A stretch of DNA of 64,000 bases from Lytechinus pictus (Eukaryota). The notes under the pieces were generated by a model. It was not told the origin of the DNA, searched no databases, and was given only the letters and a program-made list of their open reading frames with translations. Positions within the stretch are counted from its first letter, which is position 1. Each line of letters opens with the position of its first letter. Shown here in pieces: positions 22,601 through 34,600 of the stretch. The stretch covers positions 8,310,001-8,374,000 of the forward strand of contig NC_087251.1 in NCBI RefSeq assembly GCF_037042905.1. The letters are read 5' to 3'. Made by a program: the position numbers and the translations under genes.

Positions 22601-25600
22601 GAAGACTTTGGTGGCCGTGCTTTTACTGGAAGTGGTTATGACTTTATAGGCGGAGATGTGAGTATACCTTTCTTTCTTTCTTTCCTTTTTTCTCTTTCTT
22701 TCTTGCAACAAAACAGGTTGCAGGAGTGATTATCTTATACACATTAATATTCAATCCGATTGATTTATTCTTGAAGGTCAAATTTTAATAAATATAATAT
22801 CACAGAATAAAATACAAAATGATACGTGGGGATATGACCATATCAACTTGCTCATTACATATTTATGAAGACACATGCATGTTTCAACGAAACAATGCAA
22901 CGTTTTATTCCTTGTTATTCTTTGTCCTCTTTTGATGAGAACTGTCAGAATTTTGTTTGTCTGTTATACATTTATCTGTTCAAATCATTTTATTTTCAGC
23001 CTGGAGTACCCATTTAATTTCAGTAATTTTTTGTTGTGTGATATAGGGAAATCGCCCATTTGATATTGACTAATTTGATACCAAATTCCAAAGTGTTATC
23101 ATCTAAAACATGTAATGGCAAAGTACACAGCCAAAACTTTAATTGAGACTCATTCAAATTTTAAATAATATTGTACTGTTGAATGGTGAAATATGCTACC
23201 CAGCAGCAATTCCTAATGGCAATTAACTGAGAAAAGACTACTTTACCCCTTTGAATCCCCTAATGTAAATATTTTTAAACGCAAACTGATTTTTTTTTTG
23301 CAATACTCGTTGCAACAGGTCAAGCTGAATAACTAATTTAATTATACTCGGCTTTTGTGCATATGTGTATTATATGCTCTCATATTAAATACATATACAT
23401 GTATATTATTTGTTTTAAATTTTTTCTTCTTAAAATTGCAATTAGACAAAGTACCTGCGCCACTACGTGTTACTTGTTTGTGATTTGTATGGCGTTCCAT
23501 ACTTCATGGTTGACTCGGTCACGGTAATAAACTACCTTCACCCCTAACCTGAGATCGTCCGGGTTTTCCTTTATTTATGTAATGGCGTGGTGGCACCGTC
23601 GGGATCTGAACCTAGACCATTCGACTCAGTGTTATTCCAGGCACCTAGGGAACTTTATCCAATCCGTGGGACCGGGCGCTCGAATGTAACTTTTTCGTGA
23701 TAATGTCAGGTTAGCTCTTTTTCTTAGGTGAATCGTAGTCCCACATACCTCTGAAGATGTATGGATTTGCATCAACGCAGCGATGCGCCATTGCCGTGAC
23801 CGGGCCCATTTTTGGTGATGCGTCGAAGAGGCGGCGCGCTCCAGCCCCCCATTTTCCTGCTGTCGTGCAGGGGCAGCAGGAGAGTGATTGCTTCATACAA
23901 GTAGAGGTACGAAGTGGTTGTACCATTAATATGGTGAGCAAATCGGGGACATCCCGATAGACCGCGGGTCCGATAGACCGCGGGTCCGTTAGACCGCGGG
24001 TCCGATAGACCGCGGGTCCGATAGACCGCGGGTCCGATAGTCCGCGGGTCCGATAGACCGCGGGTCCGATAGTCCGCAGTGTGTGTAAAATTATGATCAG
24101 ATATATCAAATGTCATCGAGAGGTCCAAAGGTCAAATGATACGAGGCCATGGGGTTCTATCAGGTGCGGATCCATGGAGGGCCGAGGGGAAACTGCCTCA
24201 CCCCCCCCCCACCCCCAGCTCAAAAAAAAAGAGGGGGGAAGAGGGGAAAAGGGAGAGAATAAAAAAAGAAAGAGGAAGATGGGAAAAGAAGAGAATAGAA
24301 AAGAGAGTAAGAAGGAGAAAGGAAGAGAAGAAAAAGGGGAAAGGAAAGACAAAGAAAAAAGGGAGAAGAAAAGGGGAAAGAAGAGGGAAAAAAGAGGAGG
24401 GAAAAGGAAGAGAAGAAAAAATAGGAAAAGGAGGAAAAAGAAGGAAAAAAGAGGAACGAAGAGAAGAATATTTAAATAGAGAGGAAGATGGGAAGAAAGA
24501 TAAGAAAAAAGAGAGAGAGAGGAAGAGGGGAAGAAGAGAAGAAAGAGAGAGAGGGAGGAAGGGGAGAGAGAGAAGAAAAAATATTAAAAGAGAAAAAAGG
24601 GAGAAGGAAAGAAAAAGAAAAAGGGAGAAGTAAAGGGGAAAAGAGAAAAAAAGTGGAAGAGGGAAAAGAAAAGAACGGAGTAAGGAAAAGGGGGAAAAGA
24701 AGAAGAAAAAAGAGCGAGAGTAAGTGGGAAGAGAGGAAAAACGAGAAAAGAGGGAAAGAAAAGACAGCAAAAAGAGAAGAAAAGGGCGAAAGAAAAGATG
24801 GGGGAAAGAGAAGAAAGGGGGGATAGAAGAGGGGGAAAGAAAGAGAGAAAGAAAGAGAAAGGAAGGAAGGGGAATGAGGATAAAAGAAAGAAAAAAGAAA
24901 GAAAAGGAGATGGGAAACGGAAGAGGGAGATGTTGACCTTGACGTCGATTTGATGGCGCCAAAATGACGTTCGAACTATGGGGCGCCGAATTGATGTTCG
25001 ATCTAGCGGGGCACCAAATTGATGTTCGAACTAGGGGAGCGCTAATTTGAATTTTGACCATAATGCAACAAATACATGTTTCAGAGAGGGGAGGGAGTGC
25101 AAAGTTATATTTCACATGATGGGGGCGCCAAGTTTATGTTCAACCGAGGGCGCCAAATTGACCTTGAACTTAGAGGGCTTCATGCAAATTCATTTTCGAC
25201 CGGGGACGCAACATTGCCTGTTTATAGTAAAATATATGTCCTGCCAAAAAACTTCAATTAATGCGGCTGAATTAAAATATCCCGTTTTTACGATAACAGA
25301 AAAAAAAATGTTTTCGAGTTTTAAGTCTGTTTAGCGAGATAGATACCCTGTTCAGGGTCACAAAAAAGGGTTATTGTCAAATTCAGCTCGCGCTACGCGC
25401 TCGCAATATTTGATTAATGAGGTATGCATCCTCTGCTTCAATCCCACATGTAAGTGTTAGTGTTTTTCAAGTCAACATACATAGGTCGATCCAGGGGGCA
25501 AAGATTTTGCCCCCCCCCCCATGGTGGCGCAAAAAGGGGTAAGAAACAGAAAAAAGGAAGAGAAAAGGACAAGCAATTAGAATAGGAATTATACCTTAGT

Positions 25601-31600: not shown

Positions 31601-34600
31601 CCTACCTGCTGTGACGCCTACCTTACCTGGAGTCTTACCCCTTGGAACCGTGGACCCCGACCGCCCTCACTAGAAGCCGGATTGGATCCTTTGTCCGAGG
31701 GAACTCTGGCTGCCCGTCCCCAGGTCCAGATCATCTTGTACCAAGTAGACATTCAGGAATTGTCAATGATGATCATTGGCCTCACCTCGTTGAAGAGCCC
31801 CTCCCACACATTCTACTGGACTTTGACCCCACTTGATTGATGCCTCCACAGGACGGCCTAAAGGACTGCTACTTTTGTCATCTGGACTTTGATGATTCGA
31901 ACGTTGTTTTCCACAAGTATTAACTTTGAATTTTAACCTTGAACCTTTGTTTCCCGGTTGTTTTGCTTTTACATGTCTCGCTAGATATTCATTTTATTTT
32001 CAGATTTATGGTTTATGTCTGATTGTTAATCTGTTATGATTTGACCTTTGATGATGGTTGTTTGTTACATTTTGTGTTGATTTGCATTACCTTGGTTGCG
32101 AGGTTGGTGCGTTTGTTGATAATTGGTAGGAATGAAAGATTGTGCAATGCTTGTTTAATGGATGCACTTGTATGTTGATTTTTATAGTGTGATATTTTTG
32201 ATAACTGTGATAACATTATCCTTTTTATCATGTCTCTTTGACCATGGACCTATTACGAATGGACATTCAACGAACCCCCGCCTTTGGGACAAAGACCGTC
32301 ACAGCTAATCCTTTTATAAACAGAGCGCTGGCAGCTGACGCCCATCAAGCCGGTCGTAAAACACGCTCTCACTGATGGACAGCGGAAATCAATTGTACGC
32401 TGCTCCTACCCGTTGCGATGTTGTTCGTTCACTTTATCAAAAGCAACGCACAGCAGCGAACGTTAGCGCTATGAAAATAATAGCAGAAACAAGAAAACAG
32501 GCGTGCATAAACATATTTTTTACGTACATCGCAAACAACCGCACATGAAATGCATTGACATCACCTTGCAGATCCGTATATCTACGGCAAAAAAGCAGTT
32601 GAAATTTGACGGAGAAATGTGTGGAAAAACGTTAAAAATGCATCTTTTTCGGACAGTATTGATGTCGATAGTAACGCTTACCTTCGGTCAGAAGTTGATT
32701 TTCATTTGGGCATAAAATGGTCAGACGACAATCGCACATTATAGACAGCCTAAAATAATGTACTGAAAAACCGGATATGAATCGCGCATTGCAATCTAGG
32801 TAAATGTAGGGACTTTCCCTATTGGCAATCGGGGCTAAAACATGACTGTCTTTGGTCGAAAGAGGGCCAGTGATCGATCGGTGACGATCATTGGCCGAAA
32901 GGAGCTTGTGTAAACAATCGCCCCGGGCGGTCGTCGTAAAAACCGCGTAAAGAGAAAGTTAAGGGTTAGACAGCGATTTTGACAGCTGGAAACAGGTGGT
33001 GGTCATAAAGAGCTCTCGTTGAATGTCCATTCGTAATAGGTCCATGCTTTGACTGAGAATATTGATATGGTTCCTACATAAATTTTATCTGCCTTTCTGA
33101 CACTGCCTATGTAATGCACTTACATTTATGACATGACTTTTATGATGTTATATGTTGTTGGTGTTGATGGTACCTGTTATTTCCACTTTGTTCTTTTTAG
33201 ATACAGTCTTTTACATGTTTTATAGCATGGTGCCTCTATGCAGAGTGTAGTGATTAATTTTGTTTAAGCACAGTTACATGTAGTATCATAATAGTGATTT
33301 CTTTTTCCAGCCAATTCACTGAAATCTGCGCAGTTATTTTTTTACTGGTTAATTATGTTTATTTGCTATTTTACTTTGTGTCTCCTTTTTGACATGCGTA
33401 TGTTTGTCTTAGATTTTTCCTTTTTATTGTTTTAAGTAAATATATATTTGATCACATGGAAATTGATTATCAAATGTTTGTAGGTCTTGCTGTGGGCTTT
33501 TTCTTTTATTCATGTATGTTTTAAATAATTTGTCTAAAGTGTACGGATCTTTTCTTTTGGCGATGGTAGAGAGCAAGGTGACTTGTGTATTTTGATTGTT
33601 TAGTAGCTCATACATGTATTTATATTTTGTTTGACATCTAGGCTTGTATGTATTTTGTTTGACTAATGATATGCTTTTTGATATTGTTTGTGTACCATTT
33701 CTGGGCATTAATAATTGACTGTAATCTTATACCAACTTGGCGGATTGGTTTATGTAATAGGTTAGGCATAGTAAATTTGTGAACTAGAAACAGTTTAAGA
33801 CAAGTTGTATAATCTATAAAATGAGTATAAGTTTAAGCCAGATATAGAGTTTAGGTGTGTTACCAAATATTGCCTATCAATGTGCATCTTAGGTTGTTAT
33901 TTGAAACCCATTTATTTATTTCAAGAAGCTATTTGATTAGCAGTTGTCTTAGTTTACTTTTCAAAGATGGTAGTACAGTTCGTACTTGCAGAAGGAAGAG
34001 TAAGGTTGAAGTGGTTGCTCAGTTTGATTCAGTTAATGAGTGAATGTATATATTGCCATGTAGGCGTAGAGTTGTATTAAGTTTTAATTCAATAGTTGGC
34101 TGTCAGTTTTTGGGTTGTATAAGTTTCTGGAATTGTGTATATAAAACGTATGTCCTCAAATAATCACGGGAAGGAGAAAAAGTGGTCACGCCACTACGTG
34201 TTACTTGTTTGTGATTTGTATGGCGTTCCATACTTCATGGTTGACTCGGTCACGGTAATAAACTACCTTCACCCCTAACCTGAGATCGTCCGGGTTTTCC
34301 TTTATTTTTGTAATGCCCGCCTTCATTACGTCAAACCCCCGTTTGGAGAAAGACCGCAGTTCAGATTGCAAACTGCGGTATTTTACCCCAATTTGCGTTT
34401 GAAAATCTTTTCAAGCCCAGGGGGCCATTCCATAAAGCTGTTCGTAAGTTAAGAGCGACTTTAAGAACGACTGGTGATCATCGCCAATGGTGTGTACCAT
34501 TTACCGCAAGACAGGATCACCAGTCGCTCTTAACTTACGAACATATTTATGAAACACCCACCTGATCGACCCCGCTTGGCCAGGTAATCCCGGCTGTTTC

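Follow-up and report, generated by a model that had tools for sequence, protein, structure and literature searches.

We analysed a window of 64,000 nucleotides from the sea urchin Lytechinus pictus (NCBI RefSeq assembly GCF_037042905.1, contig NC_087251.1, positions 8,310,001 to 8,374,000 of the forward strand) and report on the long terminal repeat (LTR) retroelement that starts at position 23458 of this window. The element is, with high confidence, a dead copy of a non-autonomous sea-urchin Troyka LTR retrotransposon. Its long open reading frame (ORF) belongs to a protein family which, judging from the aligned sequences, very probably derives from a deleted gag-pol gene and keeps a selected ORF composed of a short N-terminal Gag remnant, a retropepsin domain without its catalytic Asp, a disordered middle of acidic character and an end rich in Pro. 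Selection is inferred here from the conservation of the protein. For the observations as a whole our best explanation, which we give about an even chance, is a Troyka parasite whose dead-protease protein docks on the Gag-Pol of a helper element.

The general structure of the element agrees with an initial annotation of this DNA made from the letters alone. The two LTRs, which had been put at about 130 bp, agree at 126 of 127 bases (23458-23584 versus 34189-34315) and the 5' LTR measures 130 bp. The primer-binding site (PBS) and the polypurine tract (PPT) are both present (Table 1), and the PBS differs from the string quoted in the annotation at the 3 of 18 bases that had been announced. The PBS may match tRNA-Leu. 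Without the nested inserts the element comes to 4,757 bp (about 4.8 kb had been estimated) with an internal part of ∼4.5 kb, of which 1,537 nt at the 3' side are the expected ∼1.5 kb of AT-rich non-coding DNA (32% GC). When a profile of three Gag-Pol proteins was run on all six frames of the element, the protease gave the sole match, so that reverse transcriptase (RT) and integrase are lacking, as had been noted, and neither RNase H nor capsid was detected. There is no further ORF in the element outside the nested inserts, and the Rfam and ARAGORN scans returned 0 matches.

The Troyka lineage was recently proposed as a new LTR superfamily. Troyka is the same lineage as the Kuafuorterviruses (PMC11673190) and is defined by CG...CG termini, target site duplications (TSDs) of 3 bp, LTRs of 100-400 bp and a mostly single Gag-Pol (Kojima 2025, PMC12440569). 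According to the same source CGCCA is found at the start of 573 out of 603 LTRs and TGGCG at the end of 522, and sea urchins are the source of 62 of the 70 non-autonomous elements. In the window both LTRs start with CGCCA, at 23458 and 34189. The 5' LTR ends with TGGCG (23583-23587) and the 3' LTR with TGCCCG instead. The LTR length of 130 bp and the net internal length of ∼4.5 kb lie within the Troyka ranges (100-400 bp and 1.55-7.7 kb, respectively) and there is no envelope gene. The junction between LTR and PBS, TGGCG followed by TGGTGGCA, is common to the window and two of the six published Kuafuorter elements shown in the supplement of PMC11673190, a third carrying a variant. Three reverse-oriented elements in that supplement have a purine tract before T(C/T)ACGCCA, like the window, and autonomous Kuafuorter RTs of L. 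pictus are also listed there. At the protein level the marks of Troyka are a CX2CX8-10HX4C knuckle, the RT motif [ILV]ADD and an integrase without GPF/Y. All three Gag-Pol relatives among the 34 matches of our domain profile (see below) bear such marks, namely CX2CX8-9HX4C and LADD or IADD. The element itself stands outside any RT phylogeny because it has no RT.

We also compared the element to other classes. For Gypsy in the strict Ty3/Gypsy sense, neither TG...CA termini nor a TSD of 4-6 bp were found. The size of 4,757 bp and the lack of autonomy are those of a large retrotransposon derivative (LARD), which is longer than 4 kb, but the internal region is not non-coding as it holds a conserved ORF family. 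TR-GAG elements have a single Gag-precursor ORF and are shorter than 4 kb; here no match to capsid or knuckle was obtained in six frames and the element measures 4.76 kb. The initial proposal of a non-autonomous LTR family in which a long ORF replaces pol is supported, and this ORF is open in other copies and species. The LARD and Gypsy framing is unsupported; the termini and the protease are of the Troyka type.

The ORF had been rebuilt from 23757 to 31840 as about 900 codons interrupted by two frameshifts and one TAG. With the inserts removed we obtained a span of 2,790 nt or 930 codons, which in this copy is broken by one insertion, two frameshifts and one stop. The breaks could be placed with the help of P0001, a natural L. 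pictus protein of 921 aa that aligns along the whole window ORF. It was the top hit among 9 proteins found with the protease-side piece in a set of 258 candidates. The sequence of P0001 continues without a break where the window has the insertion, the two frameshifts (near 29375 and 30045) and the in-frame TAG (30590-30592), and its identity to the window decreases from start to end (98, 94, 84, 72 and 65%). Near its own end P0001 runs partly in another frame, and the GPRPP motif, which the window keeps, is missing there. A profile of the domain was scored against 8,000 candidates and identified 34 proteins, 31 without Pol domains and 3 Gag-Pol proteins. The 31 Pol-less members come from L. 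pictus (2), L. variegatus (1), Diadema (1) and ENA (27), and 26 of them are ORFs of at least 600 aa (600-996 aa). For comparison, a frame of 415 codons survived 12% random substitution in only 3 out of 1000 runs.

By its alignments the ORF carries a whole Troyka-type retropepsin fold from which the catalytic Asp has been lost. The domain aligns with the Troyka protease over 118 columns (HHalign 99.2%, E 2e-19). The retropepsin-like segment had been called partial; it is complete because its first part lies upstream of the big insert. We predicted the structure of a relative, P0018 (33 rows), with a predicted local distance difference test (pLDDT) of 77.5, and the model matches Ddi1 retropepsins with E 3.4e-7. 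A model with the P0001 domain first (6 rows) failed at a pLDDT of 39.7. Five of the 31 members lack the catalytic column since their gene calls begin later. In the other 26 members the catalytic Asp is never kept: we observed Arg in 17 cases, His in 5, Cys in 2 and Lys in 2. In the window the column is occupied by the Arg codon 23910-23912, just before Ser-Gly, as seen in the alignment with the DSG of Gag-Pol. The Ser-Gly after this column is kept in 26/26 members, and the strands of the dimer sheet hardly vary. In place of the flap there is an acidic loop of the type DDFGYDDY with Asp in 25 and Tyr in 24 of 26 members. This loop is absent from the 3 active proteases and degenerate in the subfamily of the window copy. 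In a tree with few outgroups and a long P0001 branch the 26 dead domains are separated from the 3 active ones at 100/100.

Upstream of the domain, the leader of the ORF is likely a remnant of the N-terminus of Gag. A loose APKQWC-like pattern occurs in the leader of 19/31 members and [AT]PKRWC in 6, counted without a shuffle control; the window copy does not show the pattern. With this leader and the dead Troyka protease at its start the ORF is not wholly novel. The Asp/Glu-rich repeat block that had been described corresponds to the acidic middle with its 42-nt tandem repeat at 29910-30317. In the 6 members checked the middle contains 15-19% Asp and Glu and 4-6% Lys and Arg. For the C-terminal part we trained a profile on 13 members. 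It finds 8/13 of the other full-length members and scores 37 bits against the last piece of the window, compared to 4.9 for the best of 360 shuffles. PSAP, which acts as a late domain, is present within the last 130 aa of 11/26 members (shuffled mean 1.4, maximum 7). Six other members have PPAPP, and PxAPP is present in 17/26; the subfamily of the window has neither PSAP nor PPAPP in frame. An origin of the Pro-rich end from the tail of pol received no profile support, as the C-terminal profile matches no Gag-Pol. Just past the stop of the ORF, at 31843-31870, another frame reads STGRPK, which may be compared to the terminal TPG of the family and to TGRPQR at the end of Troyka pol; it is possibly a remnant of the pol end, without statistical support.

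Pfam assigned 0 families to the 5 pieces of the window, the 17 aligned members and a further 3 members that were submitted, and a sequence search of PDB yielded 0 matches. The 415-aa piece had no match of similar length among 4,026 candidates, and against 1.84 billion representatives it found only P0001 and a chance bacterial protein (P0028, E 9e-4). Matches in the ESM Atlas, which are leads only, fell into clusters without a name (0.91) and retroviral-protease clusters (0.87). In JGI data there are two decayed Troyka derivatives: in L001 (2171-3042) the fragments of protease and RNase H lie on opposite strands, and in L002 (3-1249) the protease is fused almost directly to RNase H.

We then looked at the distribution of changes along the ORF. 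Conservation is higher in the domain than in the middle for 12/12 hand-chosen pairs, and likewise higher in the last 120 aa for 11/12. Between the window and P0001 we found 97-98% identity in the domain versus 66-84% in the middle. Reads of the family cover 30/30 bins in the X1 contigs and 29/30 in X9. An X9 contig of 1,276 nt (record 9) is free of both frameshifts, and the remaining indels listed for it add up to 3 or 6 bases. The listed indels in the 3' region and the LTR are 1-3 bases long and do not keep a frame (12 of 160 rows). Together with the many long open ORFs we read these patterns as indirect signs of selection.

The interface of the dead domain was studied in a predicted complex. 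The model of the dead domain P0018 with the active Troyka protease P0051 scored 0.79 compared to 0.01 for the best control. The runs agree in at least 80% of the contacts and the pLDDT of the partners is at least 74. The mark that we used for a complex was reached by 51 of 78 solved versus 2 of 108 mismatched microbial pairs, and by 39 of 65 solved versus 2 of 126 unrelated eukaryotic pairs. The modelled interface is built from the C-terminal strands, which are conserved, the Ser that follows the lost Asp, and the new GYD loop. The model shows that the likeness to retropepsin dimers is intact; binding as such is a prediction.

The family very probably arose through an internal deletion of a Troyka gag-pol that retained one ORF. 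An autonomous Troyka would then copy and integrate the RNA via the common PBS, PPT and CG termini, as expected from established LTR biology. On the strength of the structural model we lean slightly towards a protein that uses its intact interface to dimerise with the protease in the single Gag-Pol of the helper. Since a single Gag-Pol is the product of most Troyka elements, such a docking handle would sit on each capsid subunit. The likeliest purpose, which we suggest only tentatively, would be to bring the parasite protein, plus the mRNA under translation, into assembling particles. A retropepsin dimer with one Asp is inactive, and some such dimers would be the cost of docking. It appears doubtful to us, if conceivable, that an evolved pseudo-retropepsin docking on helper Gag-Pol drives the radiation of non-autonomous Troyka elements in sea urchins. 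Besides an acidic tail it would carry, in many members, the terminal PSAP, which could recruit the endosomal sorting complexes required for transport (ESCRT) and aid budding. If true, a mobile parasite would in this manner exploit another mobile element in a new way.

Several observations weigh against the docking interpretation or the results it builds on. Passing the complex mark may show likeness only, because retropepsin dimers are already among the solved structures and cousins usually pass: close cousins did so in 10 out of 12 cases. P0018 and P0051 possibly come from different hosts, and the tree of the domain is rooted by only three active proteases. P0001, P0004, P0045 and P0047 were missed by the C-terminal profile. 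The acidic middle is unlikely to bind RNA. The weakest link is the DNA context, which was covered for the window copy alone; the other members presumably lie in LTR elements. The TSD of the window copy is not clean: one of 12 boundary pairs matches (CCT), with the left boundary one base off, and this could be chance. In raw RNA reads (X21 and X22, ∼6% of each run) the signal falls almost only on a nested miniature inverted-repeat transposable element (MITE) and the depth over the ORF is 0-3. Finally, the 19 best-supported differences in the ORF (40 of 874 listed) comprise 5 synonymous and 14 non-synonymous changes and look neutral. Such a split fits the expectation for private changes in a dead copy and lends selection no support.

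We ranked the explanations in the order of docking and hitchhiking, a brake similar to Ty1 p22, a reason at the level of the RNA, domestication and plain decay. As a trans-dominant brake the pseudo-protease would form inactive heterodimers with the helper protease and limit or time particle maturation. The conserved interface and the complex model, in which the conserved GYD loop contacts the active partner, can be read in this way, and Ty1 p22 is a precedent for element-encoded dominant-negative control (PMC4599808). However, a parasite that relies on the maturation of its helper would block its own spread, and the family stayed mobile in several lineages (PMC12440569). We consider such a brake unlikely; it would be a copy-number control like Ty1 p22, but directed at the protease and borne by a separate mobile element. 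We see still less reason to believe that the ORF is kept open mainly for reasons at the level of the RNA, where translation would stabilise or route the transcript and the domain would be a folded vestige or a homodimer without any action on a helper. The fast evolution of the middle, which is unalignable between distant members, and the loss or frame-shift of the C-terminal block in some members agree with this, but the invariant interface residues and the conserved loop specific to the dead lineage are left unexplained.

Domesticated retropepsins exist, and the assemblies of Lytechinus and Diadema have four members of the family annotated as genes. A domesticated family of host pseudo-protease genes, with the window as a captured or relic copy, is nevertheless very unlikely: the window ORF sits between two LTRs that are almost identical, several members from separate contigs, some of them split, fall into common clusters, and variant copies span the LTR and the 3' region. 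The idea of an ordinary decayed deletion derivative of gag-pol without a selected protein can draw on the broken copy, its near silence in two RNA libraries and the neutral-looking private differences. It is already largely refuted by 26 open ORFs of 600-996 aa with conserved ends, from several urchin genera and from ENA entries, and by a middle that fails to align with pol, and we regard it as scarcely credible.

The protein and its element can be compared to several known systems. The element resembles the non-autonomous sea-urchin Troyka elements (PMC12440569) in its CGCCA...TGGCG termini, the LTR of 100-400 bp, the internal length, the lack of a functional Gag-Pol and the urchin host, and its protease is closest to Troyka Gag-Pol; the TSD of the window copy is unclear. 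TR-GAG elements of plants (PMC4350172) and the GAG/PROT-only elements of sugar beet (PMC13570524) are likewise non-autonomous LTR elements with one selected ORF. They keep a capsid-forming Gag, whereas in the window family capsid and zinc knuckle are gone and an inactivated protease followed by a long tail remains. LARDs are also non-autonomous and longer than 4 kb but are treated as non-coding (PMC13570524), in contrast to the coding, short-LTR family described here. Ty1 p22/p18 is similar in being a polyprotein fragment of an element with a possible trans effect on the assembly or maturation of particles (PMC4599808). However, p22 is a Gag fragment of the autonomous element itself, while here a dead protease is carried on a separate parasite and action in trans is only proposed. 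With the RVP domain of Ddi1 and retroviral protease (PR) the family has the fold, the Ser-Gly after the catalytic column and the C-terminal dimer strands in common, but it has no catalytic Asp and an acidic loop instead of the flap.

The family had been thought to be possibly undescribed. For the class of element this does not hold, as it has been reported before (PMC12440569), but the pseudo-protease protein family may be an undescribed part of it. We found no description of the ORF in the literature on Troyka, non-autonomous elements, inactive or pseudo-proteases and sea urchins; Repbase, a Repbase report of 2008 and Data S1 of Kojima, which lay outside the search, may hold the family and possibly the ORF. 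In PMC12859917 Troyka is only cited. Non-autonomous LTR elements are generally viewed as retaining Gag or nothing beyond cis signals. That a protease persists in inactivated form across several urchin genera, with both its interface and a new loop conserved, points to a strategy of one retroelement towards another at the protein level, in a lineage whose functions are so far unstudied. Such an accessory protein could explain why 62 of the 70 known non-autonomous Troyka elements are from sea urchins, and several 'uncharacterized' urchin gene models are explained as ORFs of these elements.

Table 1. Features of the Troyka-type element in window coordinates; TIR, terminal inverted repeat.
Feature	Position	Strand	Remarks
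5' LTR	23458..23587	+	130 bp, Troyka ends CGCCA...TGGCG (termini as defined in PMC12440569)
PBS	23588..23605	+	adjoins the LTR directly; 3/18 bases differ from the initially quoted string
ORF start: leader and first retropepsin part	23757..23944	+	62/63 aa identical to P0001
Nested 5.3-kb non-coding TIR element	23945..29238		splits the protease domain
Remaining retropepsin domain (GAPFME-NDV-VRP, predicted dimer sheet)	29239..29571	+	98% aa identity to P0001; interface modelled in a relative
Acidic, fast-evolving middle	29572..30592	+	42-nt (14-aa) tandem repeat at 29910-30317
C-terminal 415 codons	30593..31840	+	Ser/Thr-rich tail; family motif W..GPRPP at 31643-31666
AT-rich 3' non-coding region	31841..34167	+	1,537 nt net, 32% GC; variant copies in X1 and X9 contigs
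Nested high-copy MITE	32243..33046		31-bp TIR, CAT...ATG ends, 7-bp TSD
PPT, 15-nt purine tract	34168..34182	+	followed by TGGTCA and the LTR
3' LTR	34189..34319	+	begins with CGCCA; final bases altered (TGCCCG)

The nested 5.3-kb insert is flanked by an 8-bp TSD (AGCAAATC) and shows imperfect TIRs, GG termini and 16-bp subterminal arrays, features by which we take it to be Merlin-like. Inside it lie more inserts with inverted repeats (for example 28091-28205 / 28864-28977) as well as a purine-rich tract of 700 bp. The MITE, presumably P-element-like, is missing from X9 record 13, and numerous unrelated flanks were seen as loose ends in the reads. RNA reads cover the MITE well and on both strands, with many different flanks. 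Another TIR element begins near 34322 and adjoins the end of the 3' LTR; within this element (34322-36073) lies a 163/192-bp repeat block with 98% identity to 13791-14090. Much of the window, in which there is no long host ORF, is filled by dispersed repeat families of 163 bp and 16 bp. In addition, 3794-5157 is taken up by a homogeneous tandem array with a 52-bp unit (26 copies, 96% matches) and 38543-39789 by a 231-bp array.

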